Positions 1,620 to 63,885 are shown, counted from the first letter of the stretch. The stretch: DNA of 64,000 bases from a virus (IMGVR_UViG_3300042879_003909:79772-143771), one strand, 5' to 3'. The notes: generated by a model from the letters alone, not told the origin. A program made the numbers and translations.

Positions 1620-1663
1620 TTTGTGTATAATAATATGACTTTTCCCTATAGGAGATAAAATAA

Positions 1664-7843: not shown

Positions 7844-7855
7844 TAAAATTCCTTA

Positions 7856-8521: not shown

Positions 8522-8525
8522 TCAA

Positions 8526-16610: not shown

Positions 16611-17023
16611 TCCAATGTGCCCACTATAATTAAAGTAAAGTTTTTAATTTGCTTTTGATTAATTTTAAATCCGAGTCTATTTAATATATCAAAAATAAAA
16701 TCAGAACTAATAAAACTCTTTATTGATTGACCGCTGTGGAAAAAACAATCATTGAAGTCATTAAATGTTATAGAGCCCGTAGTCAACATATGAGATAATA
16801 GCTCGATATCTGTCAAATATAGTATCAATTTGCCGCCCTTTTTGATTTTAGAAGCGATTAATTGTAAAATATTTTCAATTTCTTTTAATGAAAATGAATG
16901 AAGTATATCGTCTACCATTATTTCTGTAGCTTCACCGTCATCAGCTATGATATTAAGTGAATTTGGACTATTTACCCATAGGCTATCTTCGTGGTCGTTG
17001 GTGTTACTAAAAGCTATTTTCAT
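16607..17023 (-). CDS. hypothetical protein
   Basis: ORF only. Confidence 0.3.
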   Translation of the reverse strand: MKIAFSNTNDHEDSLWVNSPNSLNIIADDGEATEIMVDDILHSFSLKEIENILQLIASKIKKGGKLILYLTDIELLSHMLTTGSITFNDFNDCFFHSGQSIKSFISSDFIFDILNRLGFKINQKQIKNFTLIIVGTLE

Positions 17024-22221: not shown

Positions 22222-23072
22222 TCAATATCTCCTAGAATGTCTGATTCCCAAAATCTTATCAATTTTATATTATTATTTTTACAAAATTTATTTTTCTTAA
22301 TATCTCTAATGGCATTTCTTTTTTGCGTAGATGTTTTCGGTCCATCTTTGTATATCTTGGGATTACTGTGCCAATAATCTCCATCTATTTCTATACATAT
22401 ATTATAGTCAATGAGATAAAAATCAAAAGACCAATATTCGATTCTTTTTTCTTGTTCGTAGTTTATGTTATTGGCTTCTAATAAATCTTTAAATTTTCGA
22501 CATGGTAAAGTATCATTTTGTTTAAAAATGCCTTCTTTGATTAATCTTAATGTATTCTCTCTTAATTTCTGTTTAGTTTCTTCGGTATGTTTATGTCCAG
22601 TATGTCCATGTACAGATCTTTTTTTAGCTGACTCGCTTTGTTTTTGTTTAGTTTCTACTGACGGCTTTCTACCTATGGCTTTATCTGATATTCTTTTCAT
22701 TAAGTCAGAATTTTCTTTATTCAATCCGTTGTTCCAAGGTATTTTTCCAAACATCGGATTATTGCTTCCGACCCTATTGGTTTTTGCTTCTTGTGACCAT
22801 TTTTTTACACCTTCATTTAAACCACATGCTATCTTTTTATATCTAATATTAGAGCCATCTAATATGACCGTTAGTTTTTTATTGCACGCACCGCAAGGAC
22901 AGCTTGGGCCATATCCAAAATAGTCTGTTAAGGATAACTCATGACATTCTTCTATATGCTTTTTAAAACATTGAGATTTATAAACCCCTGTCCCTCCATA
23001 TTGTTTTACCATTTCTGATAAAGAATAATTACATATTTTACAAAACTCCCATTCTTTCTTTTCTATAATCAT
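22185..23072 (-). CDS. free-standing homing-endonuclease-like protein between the dnaE halves (zinc finger + NUMOD-like repeat + DUF559/Vsr-like endonuclease domain)
   Basis: CKICN...CFKKHIEECH zinc finger; GHTGHKHTEETKQKLRENT (NUMOD3-like GxxHSEETKxKIS); C-terminal DFYLIDYNICIEIDGDYWHSNP...IKLIRFWE (DUF559-type). It lies exactly between the Int-N and Int-C ends. Confidence 0.6.
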   Translation of the reverse strand: MIIEKKEWEFCKICNYSLSEMVKQYGGTGVYKSQCFKKHIEECHELSLTDYFGYGPSCPCGACNKKLTVILDGSNIRYKKIACGLNEGVKKWSQEAKTNRVGSNNPMFGKIPWNNGLNKENSDLMKRISDKAIGRKPSVETKQKQSESAKKRSVHGHTGHKHTEETKQKLRENTLRLIKEGIFKQNDTLPCRKFKDLLEANNINYEQEKRIEYWSFDFYLIDYNICIEIDGDYWHSNPKIYKDGPKTSTQKRNAIRDIKKNKFCKNNNIKLIRFWESDILGDIECILQKLLDVIK

Positions 23073-23101
23073 TAGTATGCCTCCTGTTAATAAAACCCAT
23101 A

Positions 23102-25786
23102 CTAATTATTATACACAATAATTTCATAACCTTGGTCTAAAATTTCATACAATGGCCGTGTTATAAAATCAGAGCATAGAAATTTATGATCTAGGGTACA
23201 TTTAATACTATGGCCCGAATCTGTTTCTATTTCATATACTTCTTTTTCGCCATTATGTATTATGTCTATTACTTCAACATAATGATCTTGTCCATTTTTA
23301 TTTGGTGCTAATATCATATCTCCTAGATTTAATTCGCACAACATCTTAATTTCATCTTTAGTATTAACCGTTGTCGTCGGGTCCAAGCATCGATTAAACG
23401 AATATCTGTTTGATGCTTCAATCCATTCAAAGATTTGTTCTGCCTCTTCTTTAGTTACAATGCCCTTTTTTTCAGCACCTTCAATAAAAGATATTTTAAC
23501 TTTAGCCATAAGATCAGCAAGTTTTTTACCCATAGCTTTACGCAAGTTATCGGCTTCTTGCTCTGTAAATCCAGCTATTTCTCTAGCTATCATCATACTT
23601 TGTTCTTGATAAACTAAAACGCCGTAAGTATCTTTCAGAATAGGCTCTAGGGCCGGATGAAAATACTTTACCTCATCCTTACCAGACTTGCGATCAATAT
23701 AGTGTTGTGTCATAGACTTGCCTTCAAAATAGGCATTCAGTGTGCCCGGCCTAATTAAAGCTACAAGGGCCGATCCTTCTTCCAGCATATGTGGCTGTAA
23801 TTTTTTAGTCCATGTTTTACCAAGCTGTGACTCAAGCTGAAAAACTCCTCTTGTATCGCCTTCGCACAATAATCTCCAAGTCTCTACGTCTTCCCAGTTG
23901 TCCAAGTCTATATTGGCATACTTAGCTATTTTATCAATCTTGCTTAAAATATCAACACCAAGAATATCAAACTTTACCTGACCAATAGATTCAAGATCGC
24001 CCATTTCAAAACCGGCTACCGGATTGCCTTCACTGTCGCGTACCATCGGACAAATATCCGCTAATGGAGAAGCGGCAATAATAATACCGGCAGCATGCTT
24101 GCCCTGCGATTTGTAGGTGCCTTCAACCTTAATTGCTTTTTCAAAAACATCTGCTAGATCGCCAATTAGTTTACCGTCTACTAAAGAGCACCACTTCTCT
24201 AATTTTTTAGGATTATTAATAAGCGCCCATCTAATAATAGACTTATCTTCCATTTCTTCTAATTCGTCAGAGATTTCAGCCTCGTCTGGAATATACTTTG
24301 TTATTTCATTCATTTCAGTAAATGAAACGATATCTTCTACTCTTAATACTTCCTTGACTGCTGATCTGCCCTGAAGTCTACCAAATGTAGCCATTTGAGA
24401 AACATTTTCATGTCCATATGTTTGTTTGATATATTCGATAACTTCGTCTCTATGTTCGGCTGGAACATCTACGTCAATGTCCGGCAAGCTACCCTTTCTA
24501 GAGCTATTATAAAATCTAGAGAACAAAAGCTTAAACGGAATAGGATCAATAGAAGTAATACCAACTAAATAAGATATTAAACAGCCAGCAGCACTTCCAC
24601 GGCCCGGGCCCGGTAGCCAGCCTTGTTTTCTTACCCAGTTGACAATATCTTGAACAATTAGAAAATAGCCAGATAGTCCAGCGTCTTTAATAATTTCCAA
24701 TTCTTCTTTGATTCTGTTTTCATATATGCTTTTAGATTCTTGTGTAGAGACTTTACCCTTTTTCACCAGTAGTTCTTGCCATCCTTTACGGCAAAGATGT
24801 TTTAAATATTCAAACTCGCTCATTCCATCGGGACAACTAAAATGCGGCAAAATAGGACTATTTAGAATGTTATATTCTTCGCACTTATCAACAATCTTTC
24901 CAGCATTATCTATCTCTTCCTGTGTATGCAAAGCTAATATTTCGCCCGGCGAAGGTATGTGATAATTGTCTGAAATAAAAAATCCTTTCAGTGGGACCTT
25001 TTCTTTCTTTTGTATCGCCCTGTTGATTTGTGGCATAGTCTTTTTTAACGCAGAACACAATAGAATTCTTTGATATACTGCGTCCGACTTATCTACATAA
25101 TGACTATCCGCAGTAGCTACAGTTTGAATATTATACTCGGCTGCTATTTCTCTCAAGCATTGGCCTATTACTTTTGCTGCATGTAGAACTTCTTGATCTA
25201 TTAGCTGAATCTCTAGATAAAAATCATTTCCAAAGATTTCTTGATGCAGCTTTATAACCTCATAACAAGACTCTTTCCAGTCTGGCCTTAAATAAGCCCG
25301 GGCTTCTTCATATGATTCTGCATCAAAAACATTATTAGAAAAGAATAAAGATTCAGATATAGCCGTGCCCGGATGACCACTAATGCAAATATGATTTCCA
25401 TTGCCAAGATTTTTCTTCATGATTGAATAGTCAATACGTGGCTTATAATAAAAATTATCTGGGTGATAACTTTCTGAAACACAGCGAATTAATTCCTTCC
25501 ATCCTTGTAGGTTTTTAGCTAATATAACAACGTGATTTAAGCCTTTATTTTCGGATGATCTATCTTTGGCATCTTTGCTTATATAAAACTCGCAACCCAG
25601 AATGGGTTTAATCCCACCCTTTTTACACTCGGAAAAAAAGTCTACGCAGCCAGATATGGAGCCATGATCGGTCAAAGCACAAGCCTTGTATCCATACTCT
25701 TTACATCGCTTGACCATGTCTTTTGGCTTACTATAACCGTCTAATAACGACAAGTGACTGTGGTTATGGAGAGACGCCCAATTCAT
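23102..25786 (-). CDS. dnaE: DNA polymerase III alpha subunit, N-terminal fragment (PHP + polymerase core), ending in a 95-aa N-intein
   Basis: PHP domain MNWASLHNHSHLSLLDGYSKPKD...ALTDHGSISG; polymerase core; the ORF terminates with ..ASNRYSFNR / CLDPTTTVNTKDE...TLDHKFL...EIIVYNN*, i.e. Hint blocks A (C-LD-T) and B (TLDH) with a stop after the N-intein. Confidence 0.85.
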   Translation of the reverse strand: MNWASLHNHSHLSLLDGYSKPKDMVKRCKEYGYKACALTDHGSISGCVDFFSECKKGGIKPILGCEFYISKDAKDRSSENKGLNHVVILAKNLQGWKELIRCVSESYHPDNFYYKPRIDYSIMKKNLGNGNHICISGHPGTAISESLFFSNNVFDAESYEEARAYLRPDWKESCYEVIKLHQEIFGNDFYLEIQLIDQEVLHAAKVIGQCLREIAAEYNIQTVATADSHYVDKSDAVYQRILLCSALKKTMPQINRAIQKKEKVPLKGFFISDNYHIPSPGEILALHTQEEIDNAGKIVDKCEEYNILNSPILPHFSCPDGMSEFEYLKHLCRKGWQELLVKKGKVSTQESKSIYENRIKEELEIIKDAGLSGYFLIVQDIVNWVRKQGWLPGPGRGSAAGCLISYLVGITSIDPIPFKLLFSRFYNSSRKGSLPDIDVDVPAEHRDEVIEYIKQTYGHENVSQMATFGRLQGRSAVKEVLRVEDIVSFTEMNEITKYIPDEAEISDELEEMEDKSIIRWALINNPKKLEKWCSLVDGKLIGDLADVFEKAIKVEGTYKSQGKHAAGIIIAASPLADICPMVRDSEGNPVAGFEMGDLESIGQVKFDILGVDILSKIDKIAKYANIDLDNWEDVETWRLLCEGDTRGVFQLESQLGKTWTKKLQPHMLEEGSALVALIRPGTLNAYFEGKSMTQHYIDRKSGKDEVKYFHPALEPILKDTYGVLVYQEQSMMIAREIAGFTEQEADNLRKAMGKKLADLMAKVKISFIEGAEKKGIVTKEEAEQIFEWIEASNRYSFNRCLDPTTTVNTKDEIKMLCELNLGDMILAPNKNGQDHYVEVIDIIHNGEKEVYEIETDSGHSIKCTLDHKFLCSDFITRPLYEILDQGYEIIVYNN
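23105..23389 (-). mobile_element. split intein, N-terminal half (Int-N) of the fractured dnaE
   Basis: 95 codons starting at Cys1 (CLDPTT) and containing the block-B TLDHKF motif; the gene stops immediately after it. Confidence 0.75.
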
Positions 25787-38108: not shown

Positions 38109-38462
38109 TCAATCTCCTTCTACTATCCATTTTTGCTTTTGTTCTGGTGTCATTTTATTAATTTTACGCATTAAGTCTTTTTTATCTTTTGCTTCTTTAG
38201 AAATAATTTTATTATCTTTTCTCATTTTTTCTTCTAGGCCATATTTGCCTAGCTTTTTAGTATTTGCTTCGGCAAGCTGTCCTATAGTTTTAATTTCTTT
38301 GACTGTTGCGTGAATGCTATCTAATGAATATTCTCTATTAACTTTTTTGCTTTTACATTGATGACATTTAACTTTTTTCATATTATCATCATACTCTTGA
38401 ACTCGCCAAAACTCTACAGATATAGAGTTACACTTTTCACATTTAAAATTATACTCAGGCAT
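38109..38462 (-). CDS. FmdB-like zinc-ribbon protein
   Basis: N-terminal YNFKCEKCNS...KCHQCKS (CxxC-x~20-CxxC). Confidence 0.4.
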   Translation of the reverse strand: MPEYNFKCEKCNSISVEFWRVQEYDDNMKKVKCHQCKSKKVNREYSLDSIHATVKEIKTIGQLAEANTKKLGKYGLEEKMRKDNKIISKEAKDKKDLMRKINKMTPEQKQKWIVEGD

Positions 38463-40206
38463 CTTTTAACCTACTTAAAATTTTTGGAATCAAGCCGTTT
38501 CTGACAACATCGGTGCCATCTAATTCACAAATGGCTACCTTATCTAAATTATGTAATCTAGAAATAAATTTATCTAATCCGCCCTTAGTGTATTCTGGTA
38601 AATCACTTTGGTCAGTATCGCCATTGATAATAGCTTTTGAGTTCATGCCAATTCTAGTAATAAACATTTTTATTTGTTCAAAAGTGCAATTTTGGGCTTC
38701 GTCAAGAATCATAAAAGCATTATGGAAGTTTCTACCTCGCATGTATTCTAGTGGACAAATTTCTATTATATTGGTTGCTTTGAGATGCATCAAGGCTTCG
38801 CCTAGATATTGTTTCATTTCTTCAAGGATAGGAATCATGTACGGATTAATTTTTTCTAACATAGTGCCGGGCAAAAAGCCTAAGCCTTTTCCTGACTCAA
38901 TTACTGGTCTAGTAATAATAACTTTAGATACATCATTTCTCATTAACGCTTCGCAGGCTAATCCAGTAGCAATTGCGGTGTTATGCGTTTGAACAAATCC
39001 GTCTGTTAAATATAAATGACTATTAGAATCTATTAAAATACACTGACATTCTTTTTCTGATATTTTTTCTATTGAATCTATGTATCTTTTTAGAAAATAT
39101 TTTTCTCTTACTAATAAATTTTCTCTTTTTCTGCTTAGCTTAAATGGCACTAAGTTATTATTAAATCTTATAAAAACCCTATAGTTTTCTTTAGTTATTA
39201 TTTTTTCATTATTTTTTGTGTAATGTCCCATTCTTGCACTAATTTTTGCAAAACCGCCTAAAGATTGAACGATAGTTTGAACATCTAGTGCTAGCTGGTA
39301 AGAAGCCGTAGAAAATTCTATTGTACTGCTTCCACAATATCCATCTGTATCTAGCAAGCCAGACAATATTTCAGTTCTAACCTGTTTAGAGTTATAAATA
39401 TATTCTTTTGGTATAAATTTATTATAAGAAAGCTTATTTAAAATACCAAGTCTTTCTAGTTCTGGTTTTAAAACTAAATATCCTCCTGTAATATTATAGT
39501 CACAATTATTTTGTTTGGAGAGAGAACAAGATATTTCATTTAGTACAGGCGTAAGTAAATCTATCATTTCTTTATCATTTGTGCTAAACCTAAGCATTTG
39601 TTGGCTTAATCCGCCGTCACCAATCAAGCATCCTAGCAAGTATGGATCGATATTAACTTCCTGATGATCAAAATCAACTGCTTCTATAGCGGGCAGATAG
39701 TATTTCCTTTTGCCGGATTTTCTTTTATAAGAATTAATAATTTTTTCTAAGGGCAATGTTTTTGGAGCTTTCCAATTTTCACTACATAATGTCCATAAAT
39801 GCTCTTTACAGCATTCTACAGTTTGTCCATCTGAAAATGTTATTAAATAAACATCTTTTTTGCCTTGCGGAAAAACATTTAGTACTTTAGCTCTTTTACC
39901 ATCTTCAGTAAGAACATATGAGCCTATTTTTACATCGCCCATCGCTATTGGGCCACTAGGAGTCCATATTGTAGAATCAAGCGGCTGCGCCTTGCCGCTA
40001 CCGGCCGGGCCAATACATAAAGTAACATCGTTTTCTACAACGCTTCTAATATAATCAGCCTGATTTTTAGTTTTTGGAACTAAAGTTTTTCTTTCTTGTC
40101 TTGGGGGATCTTTCTTTGGCGTATTATCTTGTCTCTTTTTTTTCATAAGATATCCCTTAATATGATTCAGATGTTTGCGCGAATAACGCCGGATTAAGAG
40201 ATGCAT
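38455..40206 (-). CDS. phoH: PhoH-like ATPase interrupted by a 337-aa LAGLIDADG intein inserted in the Walker-A P-loop
   Basis: Exteins CIGPAGSGK / TAIATGLACEALMRNDVSKVIITRP align with PhoH GPAGTGKTYLAvAaAvdAL...RiVLTRP, followed by the DEAQN and GD..Q PhoH core. The insert runs from AQPLDSTIW to LTDGFVQTHN|T and contains LLGCLIGDGG and LSGLLDTDGY LAGLIDADG motifs. Probable start is Met21 (MKKKRQ). Confidence 0.85.
   Translation of the reverse strand: MHLLIRRYSRKHLNHIKGYLMKKKRQDNTPKKDPPRQERKTLVPKTKNQADYIRSVVENDVTLCIGPAGSGKAQPLDSTIWTPSGPIAMGDVKIGSYVLTEDGKRAKVLNVFPQGKKDVYLITFSDGQTVECCKEHLWTLCSENWKAPKTLPLEKIINSYKRKSGKRKYYLPAIEAVDFDHQEVNIDPYLLGCLIGDGGLSQQMLRFSTNDKEMIDLLTPVLNEISCSLSKQNNCDYNITGGYLVLKPELERLGILNKLSYNKFIPKEYIYNSKQVRTEILSGLLDTDGYCGSSTIEFSTASYQLALDVQTIVQSLGGFAKISARMGHYTKNNEKIITKENYRVFIRFNNNLVPFKLSRKRENLLVREKYFLKRYIDSIEKISEKECQCILIDSNSHLYLTDGFVQTHNTAIATGLACEALMRNDVSKVIITRPVIESGKGLGFLPGTMLEKINPYMIPILEEMKQYLGEALMHLKATNIIEICPLEYMRGRNFHNAFMILDEAQNCTFEQIKMFITRIGMNSKAIINGDTDQSDLPEYTKGGLDKFISRLHNLDKVAICELDGTDVVRNGLIPKILSRLKDA
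38980..39990 (-). mobile_element. intein (Ala1-type, with a double-motif LAGLIDADG homing endonuclease) within phoH
   Basis: Block A A-QPLDST (Ala in place of Cys1); block B GQTVECCKEHLW; two LAGLIDADG motifs; C-terminal block G VQTHN followed by +1 Thr, which is the Thr of the GKT P-loop. Confidence 0.75.
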
Positions 40207-49460: not shown

Positions 49461-50507
49461 TTAGTCTCCTATTTTATCCAGTATGGATTTCGCGGTATTT
49501 TTCCACGTAAATTTTTGAGAGGTATTAATGCCGGAATCATTATTTAAAAATCCTGCTGACTGTTTAATCTTGTGAACTTCTTTCATGTGATGTATTACGG
49601 CTTCTTTTTGTTTTTCTGTGATCTTAGCCCATAAGCCTTGACCATGAAACCAAATGCCATCTTGAGCTAATTCTAAGCTATCTATTTCGATTAGCCTAGC
49701 ATTATTTTTATCACAAAATTCAGTATGGGCAGAATAATTTGTGGTTATAACTTGCTTTCCGCATGCTAGAACCTCTAATAATTCTAAATTCCAGCCTTCG
49801 GCCCTAGCTGGAAACACCCCGCAGTCAATTTGTCGCATTATATTATACACATTTTTTTGGGTGGCTTGTCTTGGTATAATCTTGATTTTATTTGATAAAT
49901 GCGAGCTTTTGCATAAATTAACCCAAGATTCTCCCCTATCCATAAGGAAAGGATTATCGCACATAAGCCACAATTCTACGTTATCTTTTTGTGTAAATGC
50001 CCTGTTAAAGCATTCTATCAGAATATCATGACCCTTACGTTTTTCCCATTTTCCGCAGTTAAAAAAGATAGTTTCTGGCCTAGATATATTATTTAATCCA
50101 TTAAATATAACATTATCTACGCCCAAAGGTATTACAGAGGTTGGCACACTAACATGCTGATGAACTATATCTTGAGCCCACTTACTAGTGGTAAAAATAT
50201 GGTCGCAATGATTTAAGCTGGCGACTTCTTGCTGGGTAAAATGGGTTAATTCAAAAATGGGAAATCCTACGCGCCTTCCTTTTGTTATCCAAGTTGTTAG
50301 TTCGTGCTGGTGCCATATTTTAATTTCTGTATCTTTACTATTAATTTTTTTATTTATCCAAAATAAACTTTTGATATCCTCTGACAAATCTTTATCTGGG
50401 GAGCTTATAGGATACAAGCATACATCTGTTAGTAAGCTAAGCTCTTTCGAGATATGGTATCCAGTATAGCCATACCCGGTAGTATTTATTGGGGCTTGAA
50501 TAATCAT
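49461..50507 (-). CDS. GT4-family glycosyltransferase
   Basis: VFPARAEGWNLELLEVLACGKQVITTNYSAHTEF (E-x7-E). Confidence 0.6.
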   Translation of the reverse strand: MIIQAPINTTGYGYTGYHISKELSLLTDVCLYPISSPDKDLSEDIKSLFWINKKINSKDTEIKIWHQHELTTWITKGRRVGFPIFELTHFTQQEVASLNHCDHIFTTSKWAQDIVHQHVSVPTSVIPLGVDNVIFNGLNNISRPETIFFNCGKWEKRKGHDILIECFNRAFTQKDNVELWLMCDNPFLMDRGESWVNLCKSSHLSNKIKIIPRQATQKNVYNIMRQIDCGVFPARAEGWNLELLEVLACGKQVITTNYSAHTEFCDKNNARLIEIDSLELAQDGIWFHGQGLWAKITEKQKEAVIHHMKEVHKIKQSAGFLNNDSGINTSQKFTWKNTAKSILDKIGD

Positions 50508-51319
50508 TTAACTTCCTCTTGTGCTTTTAAAAATTCTGGTATGTATTTTTTATCTTCTCCAAAAAAATGTACAGCCATGTCTATTTTAGTTTTTAGGACA
50601 TTTTCGCCATTTTGTTTAATTAAATCAAAACTAGCCGCGATTTCTATAGGTGGATGTACTATAATTTTTGTTATATTAACAAAAGAATCATAAATACATT
50701 CATCGCATATAAATTCATATCTTTGTTTACCGTATATTTCTTCATGTTTCAGTAATAATTCTTTGATATGATTATCATCCCTTATGTCCAATCTGTAATC
50801 TTTGCAAAAGTTTTCTAGGCTATTTCTTACTCCTTCTGTCATTTTGATTAGTCCTGCGTTTGTATCATAAAGATATAGATCATTTAAATTCATAATCTTT
50901 TGTAAAAAATCTGTTTTTCTTTTAACGTGAAAAAAAGATATCTCATTTTCTCTATTCAATAAGTTATGCATTATGTGACAATCATTTTTCATTAACTCAA
51001 ATATATTTTTTGATTTATCTAAAATTAAATCTAAATCTACCCACATAATTTCGTCATAATCTTTTGTAGTTAAAAAACCATAAACACTACATAAAGTCGC
51101 GGGGGCCCATATACATGGATAATAATGTCCATAAGATCTTATCTTGTTGTAAATAGTATTAAATGGGGTAGAGTTGTCGATTACTGATAGATCGCAATTA
51201 ATGTATTCACAATATCTATCTAAATTATTAAGAGATCTTATTTGCCATCTAGACAGTCCTTTAAAATATGGAGTATATCCATTTGAGAAACATCCAGTAA
51301 TTATAATTCTTTTTGTCAT
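50504..51319 (-). CDS. putative GT-A-like nucleotide-sugar transferase
   Basis: DxD-like MWVDLDLIL; only weakly supported. Confidence 0.3.
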   Translation of the reverse strand: MTKRIIITGCFSNGYTPYFKGLSRWQIRSLNNLDRYCEYINCDLSVIDNSTPFNTIYNKIRSYGHYYPCIWAPATLCSVYGFLTTKDYDEIMWVDLDLILDKSKNIFELMKNDCHIMHNLLNRENEISFFHVKRKTDFLQKIMNLNDLYLYDTNAGLIKMTEGVRNSLENFCKDYRLDIRDDNHIKELLLKHEEIYGKQRYEFICDECIYDSFVNITKIIVHPPIEIAASFDLIKQNGENVLKTKIDMAVHFFGEDKKYIPEFLKAQEEVK

Positions 51320-52248
51320 AATATATTCTTTAATTTAGTAATAAAATCATATACAAAGTATTCTCCTGTCAAAAAATACTTATCCATGTTTTTTATATAT
51401 TCATGTGCTTCTATTATTTTGTTTATATTTAATAAATCTTCCGGGCCATTGTAATATAGAGGATAATCATTCCCTAAATATTCAACGGTCGCATCGAGTT
51501 TATTGGTTAAAATAGGTGTGTTTCTTATCATTGGCTCTATTATACCATTATTAGCCGAAGTAGCCCAAAGGCAAGCATATACTAATGTTTTACTTAGATG
51601 TTCGTCATACTGATTATTTTCAAGTCGGCTAGGGGCATGTACCTCGTAATCTTTTCCGGTAAAACAGCTTAACCTATTCCATATCTTATTGTATTCCTCA
51701 ACAAAGCCCGGCAGACAATATGTTTCGTAATTAAGGTTATTATTTTTTATAAAGCTACATATATTGCTAAATTCTTCAAAGTTTCTTAACCAATATCCCA
51801 ATTGCGAAATAGATGGAGACTTTAAAAATTCAAAGGGGCTCCAAGTTTTGTGCACTTTTTCAGTTGGATGCTTTACAGAAAATGTCGGAATTTTAAGTCC
51901 CCATATTTTTAACAAATTATTTACATCTTTTAATAAAGAATTAGATAAGGTTATCAGACATAAACATTTTTCTAAAGATTTATAAAAGTTGGGCTGACTA
52001 AATAAAAAATGCAATGAATTTTTTTTATCAAACTCGGGCTTATCATGAACTGGCACATGAATAATTCCAATCCAAGGAAAATTATAATAAGAGTTATCCG
52101 TTTTCCTGCCCCATATAAACTTTCTTTCTACAAAATCATCTAAAAATATTCCATTATTAGAATGGAATGGTTTTAAACAATTTATAACATAGCTCCAGCC
52201 AGACCTGTGCATGCTAAAGCCTTCGCATTTAGATAAGTTTAGTCTCAT
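51316..52248 (-). CDS. hypothetical protein (possibly glycosyltransferase-related)
   Basis: ORF in the glycosyltransferase/methyltransferase island; no firm motif. Confidence 0.3.
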   Translation of the reverse strand: MRLNLSKCEGFSMHRSGWSYVINCLKPFHSNNGIFLDDFVERKFIWGRKTDNSYYNFPWIGIIHVPVHDKPEFDKKNSLHFLFSQPNFYKSLEKCLCLITLSNSLLKDVNNLLKIWGLKIPTFSVKHPTEKVHKTWSPFEFLKSPSISQLGYWLRNFEEFSNICSFIKNNNLNYETYCLPGFVEEYNKIWNRLSCFTGKDYEVHAPSRLENNQYDEHLSKTLVYACLWATSANNGIIEPMIRNTPILTNKLDATVEYLGNDYPLYYNGPEDLLNINKIIEAHEYIKNMDKYFLTGEYFVYDFITKLKNIL

Positions 52249-53054
52249 CCTATCTTTTCGCCTATAAAAGATTCATAACATCCAGCATCATATATCCATT
52301 TAAAAAAATTAATTCTTTTTTTGTAATCTTCGTCTTTAAATTTACAGCCAAACAAAAGCATGTCTGGATTATCGCTCCATTTTTCTTGATTAAAATAGCC
52401 CAAATCATAAAACCATTTTGAAAAAAATTTATCATCAAAGTCTGATAGCGGTATGTACTCAAATATATTTAATCTTCTAGACCAAATTAATTGATTATTT
52501 TTATTTATTAAAGATGGTGCCATTGCAGACATTGTTCTTGGCGTTAACACCGGCTTAAATCCACCATTAGAATTATAGTAATAACCATTAAAAATACAGC
52601 CATAAATTAGAGGCTGGTGAATTTCATCAGTTAGCTCCATTAATGAATTTTTATTCCATTCTCCCCCAATCTTTCTGGCATGATATATGCTAGCTAATTC
52701 ATTATTAAACTCACTACTTTTTGTATTGTTGTAAACACACGAATGATCGCCCAAAAACCCATAGGCCGACCTATATAAATTATTCAAAGACATAACTCTT
52801 GCTAAATAATCGTCTGGTATAAGATTGTTTTCGCATAAAAATCCTACCAATAAAGATTTGGTTGAAGATGGAACTTCATTTAAATCTAGTTTTTTAATGT
52901 TTATCTTTACCCCAAGCTCCTTAGCCTGATTTTCAAGAGATTCTGAGCATGGTCTATAGGCAATACCTCGGTCGTCTTTGCTTGATGTAGAAAAAATACC
53001 GGGCACTTTTGTTTCATTATTTATTATAAAAAAGTCTATCATACTAGCTTCCAA
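52245..53054 (-). CDS. hypothetical protein
   Basis: ORF only. Confidence 0.3.
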   Translation of the reverse strand: MEASMIDFFIINNETKVPGIFSTSSKDDRGIAYRPCSESLENQAKELGVKINIKKLDLNEVPSSTKSLLVGFLCENNLIPDDYLARVMSLNNLYRSAYGFLGDHSCVYNNTKSSEFNNELASIYHARKIGGEWNKNSLMELTDEIHQPLIYGCIFNGYYYNSNGGFKPVLTPRTMSAMAPSLINKNNQLIWSRRLNIFEYIPLSDFDDKFFSKWFYDLGYFNQEKWSDNPDMLLFGCKFKDEDYKKRINFFKWIYDAGCYESFIGEKIG

Positions 53055-53590
53055 GAGTTTCCATAGTTTTTAATGGTTAAATTTTTGTTTAAAGCAAATT
53101 CGTCTACGGCCTGCTTAACGCTTTCCCATCCGTAGTCGTGACCAGCAATAGTTCCGCTAACTTTAATCTTTGTAAACCAGATATTTAAGTCTTGCTTTAC
53201 AGATTCATAGTCGTGGGACGCATCGATATAAACAAAGTCTATTGTTTTATCTTCAAAAAATCCTGCCGAATGCTCTGATGGCTGTGGAATAATATAAAAA
53301 TAATTATGATATTCTTTTGTATTTTCTAGAAAAATTTTAAAAAGATTTTTTATGGTTGGATCGTCTTGATGCTCCCAAGAACCTTTAAAGTGATCAACGG
53401 CTACAAATTTTATTTTCTTATTATGTTTTTCAATAATCTCACACATCGCAACGGTACTTCGTCCTTTAAAACATCCAATTTCTACAAATATTGATGAATC
53501 ATTTGCAGAGGCCACTATTTCTTCATAAAGATTAACATCGTTATGGTCAAACCAGCCCTCGATTGATTCGTATTTCATATTGTCTCCCAT
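53039..53590 (-). CDS. class I SAM-dependent methyltransferase (Methyltransf_24 / sugar O-methyltransferase-like)
   Basis: SIFVEIGCFKGRST (motif I), FVYIDASHDYESV, and a divalent-cation-dependent O-methyltransferase-like layout. Confidence 0.55.
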   Translation of the reverse strand: MGDNMKYESIEGWFDHNDVNLYEEIVASANDSSIFVEIGCFKGRSTVAMCEIIEKHNKKIKFVAVDHFKGSWEHQDDPTIKNLFKIFLENTKEYHNYFYIIPQPSEHSAGFFEDKTIDFVYIDASHDYESVKQDLNIWFTKIKVSGTIAGHDYGWESVKQAVDEFALNKNLTIKNYGNSWKLV

Positions 53591-55244: not shown

Positions 55245-55613
55245 TCAAATCTTTTTTAGACGCCTGTTCTTAAAACTACAAGATATAGCATTTACAGATT
55301 CGTCTGTATTGGTAGGATCAATTTCAAATACGCTAAATAATGCTGAATTTGTCCTACGTTCAATAAGCCGGGCATATCTAGTCCAATCCTTAAATTTGTA
55401 TTTTACTACAACATCTTCATCAAAATCATCATCTAGCTCAATTTCGATAATCTCTCCGATAAGATGTTTTGGATTTTTGATTGGCTTTAAAGGATTCGTA
55501 ATTTTCTCCGCTTCTTTGCTTAAAAAGTAAGATTCTCTTTCTAATTTCCGATTCTGAATCCTCTTGGCCCGAATCTTTTTCATTTGGGCTTCTACTCTCT
55601 TGGCTCGCTCCAT
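55245..55613 (-). CDS. hypothetical basic protein
   Basis: ORF only. Confidence 0.3.
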   Translation of the reverse strand: MERAKRVEAQMKKIRAKRIQNRKLERESYFLSKEAEKITNPLKPIKNPKHLIGEIIEIELDDDFDEDVVVKYKFKDWTRYARLIERRTNSALFSVFEIDPTNTDESVNAISCSFKNRRLKKI

Positions 55614-55855
55614 TATGCCTTGATACTCCTGCGTTCTAGGGCTCGTCTAGCAAGCCTACGTGCATCCTCAACACCCTTGTCTCGCAACAATCCTCGTACC
55701 AATCCTCCGTGTGCAGTATTCTTATAGACGGCATAAAGCTGTCTACCACTAACTGCCCCGTTGGCAAATTGCCTAAGAAGATTTACCTGAGTATTGTTGC
55801 CAGTCAAATCGTTCCAGTTCATAACATATCCCCTTTCAAAGAAACAAAAAAACAC
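55613..55855 (-). CDS. hypothetical small protein (Arg-rich C-terminus)
   Basis: ORF only; locally GC-elevated. Confidence 0.3.
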   Translation of the reverse strand: MFFCFFERGYVMNWNDLTGNNTQVNLLRQFANGAVSGRQLYAVYKNTAHGGLVRGLLRDKGVEDARRLARRALERRSIKA

Positions 55856-55857
55856 AG

Positions 55858-55933
55858 TATGGCGTGTTGGAATCGAACCAACCTATGAGCGCCTTATAAG
55901 AGCGCCGGATGCTACCAGCTTACCTTACACCAC
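55858..55933 (-). tRNA. tRNA-like element with a UAU anticodon arm (tRNA-Ile(UAU)-like, possibly a pseudo or partial tRNA)
   Basis: Minus-strand sequence GTGGTGTAAGGTAAGCTGGTAGCATCCG GCGCT CTTATAA GGCGC TCATAG GTTGG TTCGATT CCAAC ACGCCAT A. It has a perfect T arm (GTTGG/TTCGATT/CCAAC). The anticodon arm has a 5-bp stem with loop CUUAUAA, anticodon UAU. The 7-bp acceptor stem has 5 Watson-Crick and 2 G.U pairs. The D arm is poor (only 2 clean pairs) and position 8 is A. A T-run follows the 3' end. Folded by hand only. Confidence 0.45.
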
Positions 55934-56105
55934 ATGTTCTACTTATATTTTAACATCTTCTTGAAGAAAGTCAATACCTTTTCCCAAAAACTTTCAGGTT
56001 TTTCTTCTTGTTTTATATTTTTTACAAAATTATTATATGATGAATGATGTTTCTGAAAGCTCTTTTGGGCTTCCATAAACTGACTATCGCTCATGCCGGA
56101 ATCTT

Positions 56106-56543
56106 TCATAGTTTAACTAGCTCCGGGTTTTGAAAAATGTTTCCAACTACAATAAAGCCTTTGTTATTAAAAGTTACGATATTACAGTCGTTATGTCCCC
56201 AATAAAGAGCGAGTCCACCAGCTTTCCACTTTACTTCACACTGAATCCAATGTACCCTTTCCTCGTTGATACTAAACCCTCCACCGGACTTATATGGATA
56301 TAAAACAATATCGCCTTCATAAATATCTTTTCCATCACGATCTTTAAGGCCGGTATATTGCTGAATAACAATGTCTTTCATTTGACAGTTTAAATTACTA
56401 TGATTTTTTGTTTCTCTGTCATAAATATAAACTTCACACCCTTCTCCAAAATCTTTTAAAGAAAGAATCGGGTCTTCTTCGGCCCAAGGGTCTAGCCAGC
56501 GGTTTTCTTTTTTGTGCCAGATTCTAAATTTAAATTCTCTCAT
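56106..56543 (-). CDS. YopX-family phage protein
   Basis: MREFKFRIWHKKENRW ... GNIFQNPELV, matching the YopX N- and C-terminal signatures (MREIKFRaW ... GNIyeNPELL). Confidence 0.55.
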   Translation of the reverse strand: MREFKFRIWHKKENRWLDPWAEEDPILSLKDFGEGCEVYIYDRETKNHSNLNCQMKDIVIQQYTGLKDRDGKDIYEGDIVLYPYKSGGGFSINEERVHWIQCEVKWKAGGLALYWGHNDCNIVTFNNKGFIVVGNIFQNPELVKL

Positions 56544-58543: not shown

Positions 58544-59199
58544 AGTAAATTTCCATTGCTAATTAAATTTCCAGTCCTGTCTTCAATACATGAACCATTA
58601 CTAAAAAAAGTATTAATCCCAGCCAACTGTAGCATACCAGAATTTAGTACATGTGAAGAGTTATGAATGTGTCCAAATAGGTGTAACTGTGGTCTAATTT
58701 GGCCTATTCTTTTTAATAAATTTTTACATCCAGCCCTCTCTAATTCCATATGCATGGTCAAGTCCAATATTCCCATTGGTGGCCCGTGTGTAATTATAAT
58801 ATCTGTATCATCAGGAATCAAGTCCCAATATTTATGAATTTTTGCTCTATCTACATTCCATGCCCAGTCTTTTCCAAATGTTGGTGTTTGTGGCGCTCCG
58901 TAAAATTTCACGCCATCAATTATAGCTTCTTGGTTCTCTAAATAAATAATTCCACTCGGTATTTGCTCGGGGAGAATTCTTTTATGAAAAATAGAAACAT
59001 CATGATTGCCCGGCACCAAAATCTTATATTGAATATTTAGTGCCGAAAACCAATCCAGAAAAGACATAGTTTCATTATAGTTAATGTCTATGTTTCTAGA
59101 ATTTGAAAAATCGCCCGAATGAACAACAGCATCTACCTCATGTGGAATTTTTAACTCCCCATGTTTACAATGCGTATCGCTAATATGCCAAATTTTCAT
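58513..59199 (-). CDS. calcineurin-like metallophosphoesterase
   Basis: ISDTHCKHG, VHSGDFSN, VPGNHDVS and ITHGPP metal-binding motifs. Confidence 0.65.
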   Translation of the reverse strand: MKIWHISDTHCKHGELKIPHEVDAVVHSGDFSNSRNIDINYNETMSFLDWFSALNIQYKILVPGNHDVSIFHKRILPEQIPSGIIYLENQEAIIDGVKFYGAPQTPTFGKDWAWNVDRAKIHKYWDLIPDDTDIIITHGPPMGILDLTMHMELERAGCKNLLKRIGQIRPQLHLFGHIHNSSHVLNSGMLQLAGINTFFSNGSCIEDRTGNLISNGNLLWIISGTNGS

Positions 59200-59849
59200 T
59201 TTATAATCTTTTTAATACTAAAAATATGACCCATTCTGCCCGGCCATGTAGATACTCTAAACTCTTTTTCTGAATTTGGAAGGACATTTTTTCTTATTTC
59301 AAATTTCTTATCTTTAAACCAAGTATTACCACCCGATACAACCCCTATAACTTCTTTTTTACTATTTAAAACTGGGGAGCCTGATTCGCCAGATACGAAA
59401 AATACATCTGCAAAAATCTCGTTTTCATCCATCGCAGAAACTTTGGTTCTTCTTATTCCTCTCGGAGAACATATAAAAATTTCTTCTTCTTCCTGTATTG
59501 TTTCTCCTAAAGAAATAGGGCTAATTTTATTGGGTGTCCATGATTTTAAAATAGCTACATCGGCTTTTTCATCTTTAGACACTAATGTAGAATTTGATAC
59601 TGGTTGTCCATTTGTATATAATATGCTGTATGTTGAGCTACCTTCAACAACATGAGCAGCAGTCAATATAAGTGATCTATAGCCCTCGCCCAAAGCATGG
59701 GGTGCATCTTCAAGCTTTTTAATTACTACCCCAGTTCCTTGCGCAACTCCCCCGCCCGGCATGTTAACACTAATTGTAACAAGAGATTCTTCTTGTGCAA
59801 TTAAATTAAAAGCAAAAAGACTAAAAAATAAAAATAGAATATACTTCAT
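59196..59849 (-). CDS. secreted trypsin-like (S1) serine protease
   Basis: Signal peptide MKYILFLFFSLFAFNLIAQ; catalytic His (LTAAHVVEG) and Ser (SGESGSPVLN). Confidence 0.6.
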   Translation of the reverse strand: MKYILFLFFSLFAFNLIAQEESLVTISVNMPGGGVAQGTGVVIKKLEDAPHALGEGYRSLILTAAHVVEGSSTYSILYTNGQPVSNSTLVSKDEKADVAILKSWTPNKISPISLGETIQEEEEIFICSPRGIRRTKVSAMDENEIFADVFFVSGESGSPVLNSKKEVIGVVSGGNTWFKDKKFEIRKNVLPNSEKEFRVSTWPGRMGHIFSIKKIIK

Positions 59850-59860
59850 AATACATTTCC

Positions 59861-61123
59861 TTAAATAAGAATATCTTTAATTAATTTTCCATTATCAACA
59901 ATTTCGATAGGTCTCGGGCCCGGGGCCAATAATTCTTTTTCTCCAACAATTCCTAATAAATGATACATCGTGTAAGCTAAATCTTCTGGGCTTGTTGGAT
60001 TCATATCAGGGTCAGATGCAGTAGGATCAGAAGAGCCATAAACCATTCCCTGCTTTATTCCGCCACCAGCAAGTAATACGCTAAAAACTTTTGGCCAATG
60101 ATCGCGTCCAGCATCTTTGTTTACTTTTGGCGTTCTACCAAATTCGCTGGAGACCATTATCAATGTTTTACCTAGCATACCACGCTCCTCTAAATCTAAT
60201 AGTAGAGTCGAAATAGCTTTATCTAAAGGAGGAAGTTGATTATTCATTCCGCCGGAGATGCCTGTGTGCATATCCCAGCCACCATATGTAACAGTCACCA
60301 TTCTTACGCCAGCTTCAACTAGTCTTCTAGCTATTAGAAGTCTTTGACCCGCTTCATTTTTGCCATATCTTTCTTTAGTTTGATCATTTTCTAATTCTAG
60401 ATTAAAAGCATCTCTTGCTTGAGCAGAACTAATTAAATTATAAGCCTGTTCATAAAATTTGTCCATAGCCACGATTTTATCTGAATTGTGTTTAGATGAA
60501 AATTCTTTATTTAATAAATCAAGAGCCTCTCTTTTTTTGTTGAATCTATTAACTTCGTCTTGAGAATTTAAATCTAAAACTTTAAAATCCTTGCTTGCAG
60601 GATCGGAATTTAAGCTAAATGGCTTATAAGAAGAGCTTAGATATCCATTATTAGCAAACTCATTTGGAGTATTTGGTACACAAACATATGGAGGCAAATT
60701 GTTTCTTGAGCCATATTCGTGACTAATTACACTTCCGAAACTAGGATATGATAAAGCCGGGCTTGGCTTATACCCAGTAAACATATTATGGGTGCCTCGC
60801 TCATGAGCGGCTTCGCCGTGAGTCATTGACCTAATAAGAGTAAATTTGTCAGAAATATTAGCTAGCTGTGGCAATCGGCTTGAGAGTATATCGCCCGTTT
60901 TTGTTTTAATAACATTAACATCGCCCCTGTATTCTATTGGAGCAAATGGCTTAGGGTCAAAAGATTCTTGATGAGCTATTCCGCCCGGCAAAAAGATATG
61001 AATTACGCTTTCGGCTTTAGCTGGAATAAAATCATATTTTTGTTGCTCTGATTTTAAATATAGTGCCTGAGCTAGATTAATACCGAAAAAACTACCAATC
61101 TGTAGAAAATTTCTTCTATACAT
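59861..61123 (-). CDS. DUF1501-family (sulfatase-like) protein
   Basis: TYGGWDMHTG, VSSEFGRTPKVNKDAGRDHW and LLAGGGIKQG motifs recalled for DUF1501; paralogous to the next gene. Confidence 0.6.
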   Translation of the reverse strand: MYRRNFLQIGSFFGINLAQALYLKSEQQKYDFIPAKAESVIHIFLPGGIAHQESFDPKPFAPIEYRGDVNVIKTKTGDILSSRLPQLANISDKFTLIRSMTHGEAAHERGTHNMFTGYKPSPALSYPSFGSVISHEYGSRNNLPPYVCVPNTPNEFANNGYLSSSYKPFSLNSDPASKDFKVLDLNSQDEVNRFNKKREALDLLNKEFSSKHNSDKIVAMDKFYEQAYNLISSAQARDAFNLELENDQTKERYGKNEAGQRLLIARRLVEAGVRMVTVTYGGWDMHTGISGGMNNQLPPLDKAISTLLLDLEERGMLGKTLIMVSSEFGRTPKVNKDAGRDHWPKVFSVLLAGGGIKQGMVYGSSDPTASDPDMNPTSPEDLAYTMYHLLGIVGEKELLAPGPRPIEIVDNGKLIKDILI

Positions 61124-61209
61124 AAAAGTCCTAATTAAAAGAGCTGTCTGCGGCTAATTCGCCCTTAATATCTTGGGCAAAACAAACTAATTATACTATA
61201 ATAAATACA

Positions 61210-62487
61210 CTAATCAACTAATTCTGTGATTATTTTGCCACTATTTGCTATTTTCATAGGTCTTCCATCATTGGAAGTAAAATTTGTTTCTAGAGAAATA
61301 TCAAGCGATTTAAGAACTGTCGCCATTATATCTTGGGCAGAATAGGGTTCAGTGGCTACCGATGTTCCATCTTCGTTTGTAGAGCCGATTACTTGTCCGC
61401 CCTTAACTCCGCCGCCACCAAGCACTACGCTCCAAGCTTTTGCATAGTGATCGCGTCCGGCATCGGTGTTAATGTTTGGAGTACGCCCAAACTCGCCCAT
61501 CCACAAGATTGTGGTGTCTTGATAAAGACCACGTTGATTTAAATCTTCTATTAAAGCACTCATGGCCTGATCCATGATTGGTAGCTTTTCTTCTAGTGTA
61601 TTAAAAATATCCGCATGATTATCCCAGCCACCAAAATCTACCTCGATAAAAGGAGTACCGACTTCAACCAGACGGCGGGCCATCAAGCATCCTCGCCCAA
61701 AAGAATTATCGCCATATCTCTGTTTAATTTTTTCTGGCTCTTTATCTATTTTGAATAGATTCATTTGATCGCTGGCAACAACTTTAACGGCACGGCCTAA
61801 AGTCTTTGAATGATCTTGAGGAAGAGAGCCTCTATTTTCTTTTATAAATCCTTTTTCTATAACCTCCAAAGCCCTTAGTCTCTGGATCATCCTTAATTCA
61901 TCTACATTAAATTTTAAATCTCTAATATTTCCATTTGAACCAACTACAAATGGAGAATAGCTAGCTCCTAAAAATCCCGGGCCAATACTGGCTCCTCCAA
62001 TAGAAACAAATTGCGGTATTTCTAGTGCTGGATTATTTAACTGATTAGAAATTACAGAGCCATAACTTGGATGCTCCATAGTTGGAGAAGGTGCATATCC
62101 AGTATGTAAATAATATCTGCCCCTTGTATGGTCGGCTTCTCTGGTGCTCATGCTTCTAACTATGCTTAGATTATGCATCTGTTTTGATAGAAGGGGCAAA
62201 TGTTCGCAGATTTGAATGCCATCTGCCGATGTTGAAATAGGTTTAAACTTTCCTCCAGTCGGAGCATTTGGCTTCAAGTCCCATATGTCGATAGTGCTAG
62301 GCCCACCATTCATCCAAAGCAAAATACATGATTTATTTTTTTTCTTTATTTCATCCGCTTTTGCAAAAAGTCCAGAACCAACAAAACCAGAAGCCAAAAT
62401 TAAATTATTTACAAATTCTCTTCTATTCATTTTTATTACCCTTGTTTTTTGTAGCATAACCCTTTTCGACCATAACATTTGATACAT
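61210..62487 (-). CDS. DUF1501-family protein with a twin-arginine (Tat) signal
   Basis: MNRREFVNNLILASGFVGSG Tat-like N-terminus (probable true start); FGGWDNHAD, MGEFGRTPNINTDAGRDHY and VLGGGGVKGG motifs. Confidence 0.65.
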   Translation of the reverse strand: MYQMLWSKRVMLQKTRVIKMNRREFVNNLILASGFVGSGLFAKADEIKKKNKSCILLWMNGGPSTIDIWDLKPNAPTGGKFKPISTSADGIQICEHLPLLSKQMHNLSIVRSMSTREADHTRGRYYLHTGYAPSPTMEHPSYGSVISNQLNNPALEIPQFVSIGGASIGPGFLGASYSPFVVGSNGNIRDLKFNVDELRMIQRLRALEVIEKGFIKENRGSLPQDHSKTLGRAVKVVASDQMNLFKIDKEPEKIKQRYGDNSFGRGCLMARRLVEVGTPFIEVDFGGWDNHADIFNTLEEKLPIMDQAMSALIEDLNQRGLYQDTTILWMGEFGRTPNINTDAGRDHYAKAWSVVLGGGGVKGGQVIGSTNEDGTSVATEPYSAQDIMATVLKSLDISLETNFTSNDGRPMKIANSGKIITELVD

Positions 62488-62902
62488 CGTCTAAAGAGCC
62501 ATCTCCATCAACATCTTTATAAATATATCCTAGTACTCTAGACATATTAACAGAATTTGAAATATTTCCATCAAAAGGCACTCTTACATGCACTTCATCA
62601 TTTGGTTTTAATATTTTTTGTAAATATTCTTTCGATTCTAATCCTCTGGCTTTTTCTTGCTGGTTTTTTGTTTTTATTTCAGGCGCCCAACAATCTACCA
62701 TTCTTATATTTGCTCGGATTTTAAATTCTACTGTTACAGTATCTCCATCATAAACAGAAATTATTTTAGCCGGGGCATCAATAAATGTTTCTGTCTTAGA
62801 ATAAGCTAATGTAAACCTTGTAGCTACTACAAATAGCATAAACATAGCGCAATAACTAGAAATAATATTTAAGATTTGAGCAGCTACAAGTTTATATTTC
62901 AT
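62423..62902 (-). CDS. membrane-anchored staphylococcal-nuclease (SNase/thermonuclease)-like protein
   Basis: N-terminal TM; SVYDGDTVTVEF..NIRMVDCWAPE...RVLGYIY...MVEKGYA matches the SNase fold (ViDGDTi.v......vRL.gIDaPE...yGR.lAyv...G). Confidence 0.55.
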   Translation of the reverse strand: MKYKLVAAQILNIISSYCAMFMLFVVATRFTLAYSKTETFIDAPAKIISVYDGDTVTVEFKIRANIRMVDCWAPEIKTKNQQEKARGLESKEYLQKILKPNDEVHVRVPFDGNISNSVNMSRVLGYIYKDVDGDGSLDDVSNVMVEKGYATKNKGNKNE

Positions 62903-62904
62903 AT

Positions 62905-63885
62905 TTATTCCTCTTGAAAGATATCCGAGTTTGCCCGGGTCATTAGGGCTATAATATTTTGTCCGCTAGAAGTTTCCGATATAAAATGCACAGAGCCATC
63001 ACATCTTAGGCTCATTATACCACCATTATGAAAACTGTAAAGCTCACTATCGTTTGTACAATTCATGTTGCACTGTCCTACTATAGTAACAGCACCACTA
63101 GAAGAAGTGCCATTTTGTACGCCAATTTCGTTAGAACCATCTAAACTAAATCCATTGTTAATATCGGCCCAGCCCCATCCATCTCCAACAAAAGGCGTAT
63201 TAAAAACTAAACCAGATTTTGGATTCTGTGATATTCTACTGCCTCTTCCATAGAAACTTGGTCTTCCGGAGCCCTCTGCCACAATTACTGTTTGGCTTGT
63301 TCCATCTAGAATCTGGCTCATTTTAACGCCTTGAGGCCCTCTTGCAAGAGCACCAAAGACTTCTCTGGTATTTATTGATGGAAGCCCATTAGACACAAAG
63401 AATGAGTTTCTAACAGCATTCACGGAACCATAATCGCTATAACCAAAAACCGGCTGACCATAAGTAATTCCTAAAGCAACATATAGGCTTTGAAAAGGAA
63501 CTTCTCTGGTCGCTGGTGCTGTTGGGCACAAATATGTAGGGATAGACTTAGTTGTAATTGGGGTATTTAAAGAATCAAACCAATTTACGCCATGATAATA
63601 ATTGTTATATGCAGATGTTTGTTCAATAAAAGGAAGAACCATTTTTTGCCAAGATTGCTGAAAAACCGGAGGCGAAACACTAATCCGGCTTGGCGGAAAT
63701 AGTTTATATGTACTTTCGTAATTCAATAAAGCTAATCCAATTTGCTTTAAGTTGTTGGAACATTGCATTCTGCGGGCTGCTTCTCTGGCTGCTTGAACTG
63801 CCGGAAGCAATAATCCCACTAAAACGCCAATAATTGCAATAACAACTAGAAGTTCAATCAATGTAAAACCATTCTTTTTTTTCAT
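62905..63885 (-). CDS. DUF1559 protein: type-IV-pilin-like N-terminal methylation domain plus C-terminal H-X9-DG motif (a Planctomycetes/Verrucomicrobia signature family)
   Basis: N-terminus [56 protein letters not shown]; C-terminal [20 protein letters not shown] (H-x9-DG). Confidence 0.75.

Follow-up and report, generated by a model that had tools for sequence, protein, structure and literature searches.

A phage-borne tRNA-Ile(UAU) gene with a conserved, non-canonical D arm

Genomic setting

In the window, i.e. the whole 64-kb stretch of DNA that was analysed, a single tRNA gene was detected. It encodes a tRNA-Ile with a UAU anticodon and lies on the minus strand at 55858 to 55933, in the 116-nt gap between two co-directional small ORFs (55939-56109 and 55613-55822). 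The window has a GC content of 34%, holds nearly all of its genes on the minus strand and is read as part of a large uncultured phage; at least three other samples yielded contigs 100% identical to it. The replication genes comprise a DNA polymerase III alpha with a Hint/intein module, a DnaB helicase, a DnaG-like primase and RecA. Genes of nucleotide metabolism and other functions include a ribonucleotide reductase, a PhoH with a LAGLIDADG insert, ThyX, a dCMP deaminase and a dNMP kinase, and a PD-(D/E)XK nuclease and YopX are also encoded.

The DNA polymerase III alpha gene is seemingly split over 21100-25786 (minus strand). In detail, the ORF at 23102-25786 (-) holds the PHP domain, the pol3 alpha core and finger, and a terminal Hint/intein N-terminal module, the ORF at 22185-23072 (-) shows NUMOD3/DUF559 endonuclease-like motifs, and the ORF at 21100-22221 (-) carries the HHH_6 and OB-fold C-terminal parts. 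Either a split gene or an intein that carries a homing endonuclease could explain this arrangement. In the PhoH-like ATPase (38455-40206, minus strand) the LAGLIDADG domain occupies residues 277-346 and is probably an intein, and an HNH homing-endonuclease-like ORF is found at 3773-4516.

A glycan-synthesis set that is unusually large for a phage extends over 6540-20757 and 49461-53590 (-). Its glycosyltransferases include GT25, a GT10 fucosyltransferase, a GT47 exostosin-like protein, a TcdA/TcdB-type protein, GT2 and several GT1/GT4 members, and three FkbM methyltransferases, an NAD epimerase/dehydratase and a nucleotidyltransferase belong to the same set. At 59196-63885 (-), two DUF1501 genes, a DUF1559 gene with a prepilin-type N-methylation motif, a trypsin-like protease and a metallophosphatase are of the Planctomycete/PVC type. 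Their GC3 is low and phage-like (0.21-0.29), and thus gives no direct clue to the GC content of the host.

The tRNA gene and its flanks

The sequence-only reading had folded this stretch by hand into a tRNA and had proposed a run of ARAGORN. The program called a tRNA-Ile(tat) at 55857-55933 (-), thus with one extra base (55857), as the sole tRNA of the window. When the window was shuffled 60 times with its dinucleotides preserved (3.8 Mb), ARAGORN called no tRNA at all, so the call is not due to chance. From G1 at 55933 to the discriminator A73 at 55858, the minus strand reads GTGGTGT AA GGTAAGCTGGTAGCATCC G GCGCT CTTATAA GGCGC TCATAG GTTGG TTCGATT CCAAC ACGCCAT A, and the 3' 45 nt of the tRNA are GGCGCTCATAGGTTGGTTCGATTCCAACACGCCATA. 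This tRNA sequence is 100% identical in the independent assemblies L253 to L255.

The acceptor stem (1-72 to 7-66) consists of seven pairs, five of them Watson-Crick and two the wobbles G1.U72 and U5.G68. The anticodon stem-loop is GCGCU/CUUAUAA/GGCGC, with a stem lengthened by G26.U44. Its loop CUUAUAA (55894-55900, minus strand) contains the anticodon TAT (U34 A35 U36) at 55896..55898 (-), placed by ARAGORN at position 36, and A37 and A38, which are present here and in most family members. The T arm, GTTGG-TTCGATT-CCAAC, lies at 55866..55882 (-). All three elements, i.e. the 7-bp acceptor stem with its two G.U pairs, the UAU anticodon in its CU-UAU-AA loop and the T arm, agree with the earlier folding by hand, and so does the weakness of the D arm as an observation.

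The D arm is part of the block AAGGTAAGCTGGTAGCATCCG at 55906..55926 (-), which comprises A8, A9, a D stem of 2-3 bp, G18G19 and G26. A14 and G18G19 are present. Position 8, which is U near-universally in tRNAs, is A, and only two to three pairs are possible, in the register 10-25/11-24/12-23 or in the register 10-25'/11-24'. ARAGORN draws a stem of three pairs (G-C, G.U, U-A) plus an A.C mismatch. In the thermodynamic fold the MFE structure is a cloverleaf, with an MFE of -22.9 kcal/mol that is not significant as an energy (z = -1.08).

The upstream of the two flanking ORFs (55939..56109, minus strand, 56 aa) is contained in the ORF list and is a gene call in L253, a contig 100% identical to the window. 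The downstream one (55613..55822, minus strand, 69 aa) has its ATG at 55822 after a ribosome-binding site AAAGGGG and is called in L253 at 9120-9329. The former is conserved in the related loci L006 and L218 described below and the latter in L006; searched against PHROGs, neither gave a match. At 55947..55974 (-), a promoter scan predicted a promoter of the sigma-70-like type (10/12 matches), which reads TTGACT-16 nt-TAAAAT and has a TG extended -10. The end of this promoter-like site lies 14 nt before the start of the tRNA, and the site falls within the 3' end of the upstream ORF. The pattern TTGAC-N17-19-TAAAAT is unique in the 64-kb window, with 0.35 occurrences expected anywhere, and L218 keeps the motif, as does L006, where it has TTGACA and precedes the orthologous tRNA. 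Its conservation suggests a dedicated tRNA promoter. On the other side, the 3' trailer CTGTGTTTTTTTGTTTC (55841..55857, minus strand) shows a T run after the acceptor stem, and CCA is not encoded; a terminator scan made no call at the trailer.

Orthologous tRNAs and a group I intron

The 80-kb IMG/VR contig L006 is syntenic with 43.8-57.8 kb of the window at protein identities of 50-84%, and carries the orthologous tRNA between the same two small ORFs. In comparison with the window, the L006 tRNA has changed from U-A to G-C at 2-71 and from G-C to A-U in the anticodon stem (compensatory). In the case of L218, an intron-less copy, the sole change is from U5.G68 to C5-G68.

The L006 gene (13239-12961, minus strand) is interrupted between U34 and A35 by an intron of ~190 nt, at about 13203-12997, that matches the group I intron model RF00028 at 13214-13031 with 56.2 bits (gathering score 50, E = 1.7e-13). 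Joining of the exons restores the loop CUUAUAA, and the split gene was overlooked by ARAGORN. By hand inspection, the splice-site U of the predicted P1 helix seems to stand opposite A and not G. Group I introns in anticodon loops are known from bacterial and plastid tRNAs, such as tRNA-Leu(UAA) and the Azoarcus tRNA-Ile(CAU), whereas the one in L006 interrupts a phage tRNA-Ile(UAU). The window copy is free of the intron.

The lineage marked by the D block

The 21-nt D block AAGGTAAGCTGGTNGCATCCG marks a lineage of tRNA-Ile(UAU) genes in 13 IMG/VR contigs and 62 metagenome contigs, with a total of 72 copies and 39 distinct sequences. The IMG/VR contigs were obtained with the D-arm motif GGTAAGCTGGTNGCATCC alone, and the 62 further contigs by scanning metagenomes with the D block plus CTTAT. 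In 11 of the 13 IMG/VR contigs, ARAGORN calls a tRNA-Ile(tat) at the motif, mostly within the tRNA arrays of large phages (contigs of up to 446 kb); the remaining two are a contig-edge copy (L009) and the intron-split copy of L006. Within IMG/VR the motif adjoins a UAU anticodon only. An exact search with the anticodon stem-loop gave two IMG/VR contigs that share the D and anticodon arms and differ in the acceptor and T stems.

Among 185,579 prokaryotic species-representative genomes, the motif gave 55 matches, which is the chance level (by our own arithmetic, ~69 are expected for 17 specified bases in 596 Gb). One of these 55 is a tRNA, on a 4.2-kb contig of a Dehalococcoidia MAG (L145). This contig has the tRNA and ORFs in common with a marine phage clade, and looks like binned phage DNA. 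A BLAST of two family tRNAs and the window locus against 50,697 GenBank phages found no relative and returned short T-arm matches and a YopX gene fragment only. Within the collections searched, only uncultured phages carry the lineage, and every copy of its D arm comes with a UAU anticodon. Clustering of the ORFs from 78 family loci found no protein, be it a modification enzyme or an IleRS, that spans the family; the clusters stay within one phage clade. PHROGs gave no functional names for the few family-locus proteins that were compared.

As for the 3' end, an encoded CCA is absent in 29 of 39 family members. In a 41-member alignment of distinct family tRNAs, 28 have the G1.U72 wobble as first acceptor pair. 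CCA is encoded by 0 of 26 checked members of this type and by 10 of 12 checked members with a Watson-Crick 1-72 pair (C-G, G-C and A-U types). This split may reflect two host groups that differ in tRNA 3'-end processing.

The family is also poorly seen by covariance models. Scanned against Rfam at the gathering score, the window gave no match for the tRNA. In E-value mode the best match in clan CL00001 was tRNA-Sec (RF01852) with 28.7 bits (gathering score 47), and the general tRNA model RF00005 scored below this value (gathering score 29). The acceptor, anticodon and T arms are common to both models and the window tRNA; tRNA-Sec comes out best because a long helix of six positions can be drawn in the D region and a stem of 6 bp in the anticodon arm. 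A tRNA-Sec identity was rejected, as the gene lacks a UCA anticodon, a long variable arm and a conserved eighth acceptor pair. At the gathering score the Rfam tRNA model overlooks 11 of the 12 family members tested; more than 90 neighbouring phage tRNAs from the same loci reach 34-77 bits with it. Since the lineage falls below the threshold, pipelines built on the Rfam model would undercount such tRNAs.

Selection on the cloverleaf

The weak D arm and the lack of an Rfam match at the gathering score are what a partial or decaying tRNA would show, and the sequence-only reading had indeed offered, as its alternative, an attP-embedded 3' segment or a pseudogene that is losing its 5' part. This can be judged from an alignment of 34 homologues (A2), on which the figures for pairing, covariation and invariance are based.

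Standard pairs are formed in 98.6% of the stem cells, and 18 of the 21 pairs have changed on both sides. None of 500 column shuffles matched the observed percentage of pairing or the covariation score. In a control in which the 3' partners were slid by 1-3 columns, 34-58% of the cells were paired. The acceptor stem has 97.5% of its cells paired and double changes in 7/7 pairs, the anticodon stem including G26.U44 has 98.5% paired with 5/6 pairs compensatory, and the T stem has 100% paired with 4/5 pairs compensatory. C32, U33, U34, A35, U36 and the discriminator A73 are invariant in all 34 homologues. Altogether this shows purifying selection on the cloverleaf of an intact gene.

Mean pairwise identity is 0.45 over the three long stems (acceptor, anticodon and T), 0.95 in the anticodon loop, 0.92 in the T loop and 0.95 in the 21-nt D block, the last value being partly built in by the search, as the family members were found via this block. 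The acceptor, anticodon and T stems are thus almost wholly turned over while the D block is 95% identical, and in the 39 distinct members it is the same save for one loop position. Two relaxed scans of IMG/VR remove the ascertainment bias only partly. When the D stem was freed and the loop core fixed, only two variants appeared. In the case of L188, GGU...AUCC is replaced by CUC...AGGG, so that the outer two D-stem pairs are compensated, which is compatible with both registers. In the case of L189, A23 has changed to G with U12.G23 retained, which favours 10-25/11-24/12-23 and still leaves room for the second register. With the D stem fixed and the loop freed, the scan gave no new variant.

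A decaying or attP-derived fragment is difficult to reconcile with these data. The cloverleaf is full-length, its 5' and 3' acceptor strands co-vary, and the supposedly degenerate 5' part contains the most conserved element of the family. The same syntenic position is occupied in L006, the promoter motif is conserved, and homologues stand within the tRNA arrays of large phages. An integrase would be expected next to an attP site, but no integrase or recombinase domain was found among the ~60 window ORFs scanned with Pfam or PHROGs. Finally, none of the scanned cellular genomes has a tRNA with this D arm, save for the one contig resembling binned phage DNA. The constrained D region, the covariation, the lack of an integrase among the scanned window ORFs and the lack of a cellular tRNA with such a 5' part in the scanned genomes lead us to reject the fragment explanation, to which we assign a very low probability.

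Codon demand and decoding

In most bacteria, AUA is read only by a scarce tRNA-Ile2 that depends on TilS. The abundance of ATA codons in this phage, as proposed from the sequence alone, could be verified by counting: 588 of the 17,632 window codons are ATA, i.e. 33.3 per 1000 and 41% of all Ile codons. AGA likewise accounts for 23.3 per 1000 codons and 63% of Arg codons in the window. A tRNA-Arg(UCU) gene lies ~300 nt (about 280-350) past window position 64000, on the minus strand upstream of the DUF1559 gene, and was located on contigs 100% identical to the window (L253 590-661, L254 2519-2590, L255 586-657). The pairing of Arg(UCU) with Ile(UAU) recurs in L001 and L002. In arrays of large phages a family member is found beside Ile(GAU) and Met(CAU) genes, and there takes the AUA slot of a complete set. 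The codon supply-and-demand argument covers the demand side of the phage only, and is to this extent half tested.

A recoding tRNA would read AUA with another amino acid, e.g. Met as in mitochondrial codes, or would deliberately read AUG too; UAU-anticodon tRNA can also read AUG on E. coli ribosomes (PMC3575796), and an atypical tRNA body could in principle redirect identity. Codon substitution was evaluated over 3,739 aligned codons between the window and its L006 orthologues. ATA exchanges with ATT 60 times, with ATC 23 times and with ATG 10 times. The partners of ATA are Ile in 62% and Met in 3.8% of cases, those of ATT are Ile in 65% and Met in 3.4%, and those of ATG are Met in 68%. The ATA profile is that of ATT and unlike that of ATG, so ATA means isoleucine in this phage. 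Recoding of AUA to Met is rejected on the basis of these patterns, and there is hardly any probability left for a recoding tRNA in general.

Another explanation is that the RNA is tRNA-shaped and has a main job other than decoding, as a decoy or replacement against a tRNA-cleaving defence nuclease or in regulation or priming, and that what counts in it is the frozen D arm. The D block is indeed frozen, non-canonical and found in phage-type contigs only, the family scores poorly with the general Rfam tRNA model, and there are known cases of phage tRNAs evading anticodon nucleases. Against this, the anticodon loop is canonical and invariant, and the acceptor stem, A73 and T loop are kept as a translating tRNA needs them. 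The demand for AUA decoding is very high, and the array neighbours Ile(GAU) and Met(CAU) leave to the family member exactly the AUA slot. We thus consider a non-decoding role improbable, if somewhat less so than decay or recoding.

Covariation, synteny, codon statistics, the promoter and the tRNA-Arg(UCU) gene instead support the main proposal of the sequence-only reading, i.e. a genuine AUA-decoding tRNA-Ile(UAU) that fits the AT-rich codon usage. With high confidence, we regard the gene as encoding a functional elongator tRNA-Ile(UAU), supplied by the phage to read AUA without the need for TilS, which is dispensable as T34 is written in the gene.

A proposed route to AUA decoding

Firstly, the gene would probably be transcribed from its own sigma-70-type promoter. 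Secondly, host enzymes would trim the transcript, and the CCA-adding enzyme would add the CCA missing from the gene. The host isoleucyl-tRNA synthetase would then charge the tRNA with Ile, and the tRNA, whether or not U34 is modified, would read AUA. The tRNA-Arg(UCU) outside the window would serve AGA, in which case the phage supplies decoders for its two most host-limiting A-ending codons.

For E. coli IleRS, the identity elements described by Nureki et al. in 1994 are reportedly A35, U36, A37, A38, A73, U12-A23, C4-G69 and C29-G41. In comparison with these, A35, U36 and A73 are invariant in the family, U12-A23 is present in one of the D-stem registers only, and the pairs 4-69 and 29-41 vary freely.

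Mycoplasma mobile (PMC3575796) and Bacillus subtilis without tilS (PMC3919564) read AUA with a tRNA-Ile that has a UAU anticodon. Such a tRNA is poorly charged by E. coli IleRS (PMC3575796). Together with the reading of AUG on E. coli ribosomes, this implies that function, in terms of both charging and fidelity, depends on properties or modifications of the host or on the tRNA body. The question is thus raised how a host whose IleRS and ribosome are built around lysidine can use a UAU anticodon and still not misread AUG.

Our preferred guess is that the D arm carries identity or tertiary-structure determinants that would offset the absent G34 or lysidine-34, so that the frozen block would compensate for charging and fidelity. 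A more far-reaching version of this idea is that the D block as a whole (A8, A9, minimal D stem, G26.U44) is an adaptation that lets a UAU tRNA work in lysidine-built hosts, either through IleRS contacts outside the anticodon, by limiting U34 to AUA, or through nuclease escape. This version is speculative and we would not favour it at present, although we hold it to be less remote than a non-decoding RNA. If true, it would describe a phage-restricted, TilS-independent AUA lineage that persists while every helix is rewritten, and that is overlooked by standard covariance-model annotation.

As it is well established that phages carry tRNAs for rare codons, the role of the window gene is in itself ordinary. 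With it, a phage would nevertheless be able to read AUA independently of the essential TilS of the host. The pair of AUA and AGA tRNAs could also be used as a codon-usage handle for host prediction in an uncultured phage with Planctomycete-like genes.

Comparison with known tRNA-Ile systems

The M. mobile tRNA-Ile2(UAU) and the G34U suppressor tRNA-Ile1 of B. subtilis without tilS share with the window tRNA a gene-encoded UAU anticodon (PMC3575796, PMC3919564). Both are elongator tRNA-Ile, as is the window tRNA, and read AUA without lysidine or TilS. They differ in being cellular, whereas the window tRNA is phage-borne and would depend on the IleRS of a foreign host. The M. mobile tRNA has a co-adapted IleRS (Arg865) and ribosome as its partners (PMC3575796). 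The comparison with the two cellular tRNAs covers anticodon, decoding and gene origin, and the frozen non-canonical D arm with A8 and a stem of 2-3 bp is described for the window tRNA by itself.

Phage T4, which is AT-rich and lytic, encodes a tRNA-Arg(tct) and an annotated tRNA-Ile, and thus decoders for AUA and AGA like the window phage. The T4 tRNA-Ile has a canonical D arm, TAGCTCAATGGTTAGC, and a CAT anticodon, in contrast to the TAT of the window gene. With CAT, it is dependent on the TilS of the host. T4 therefore uses the lysidine route, which the window phage does not. T4 had been considered as a precedent for UAU and was dropped, as its record shows the CAT anticodon.

Canonical tRNA-Ile(UAU) genes are present in the Ruminococcus phage phiRgPS_6 and in more than 100 IMG/VR contigs. 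They have the loop CTTATAA and the phage context in common with the window gene, and presumably play the same role. Their D arm is mostly TAGCTCAGTGGTTAGAGC, unlike the block of the window family, which also differs in its G26.U44-extended anticodon stem and its variable region of usually 6 nt. Nothing specific on phage tRNA-Ile(UAU) or Ile-TAT came up in a literature search. Since canonical forms occur in cultured phages and in IMG/VR, this kind of tRNA had been seen before. The novelty lies in the structural variant, with a frozen atypical D arm with A8, occurrence in phage-type contigs only and a score below the Rfam threshold, and also the intron-bearing allele in the sister phage.

In an unbiased sample of phage tRNA-Ile(UAU), most members have ordinary D arms, and the window family is one of several non-canonical types. 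Others that are non-canonical in the D region show, e.g., GG-GAGGTCTTGGTTATCTC or TG-CCTGAATTGGAAAAAGG, often with U8 missing (L023, L046, L048, L064, L091; L031, L044, L116, L120; L019, L037, L085, L100). Of these, L100 (9486-9563) has the core AAGCTGGTAGCA and may be a distant cousin of the window family. In phage tRNA arrays ARAGORN also made 'tRNA-???' calls with two-base anticodons, at L010 5534-5604 (-), L011 9089-9163 (+) and L100 11050-11135 (+), which may be odd anticodon loops or artefacts. In addition, a 162-kb IMG/VR phage contig with a family tRNA-Ile(UAU), L012, carries a tmRNA gene at 1460-1785 (+) (RF00023, 74 bits).
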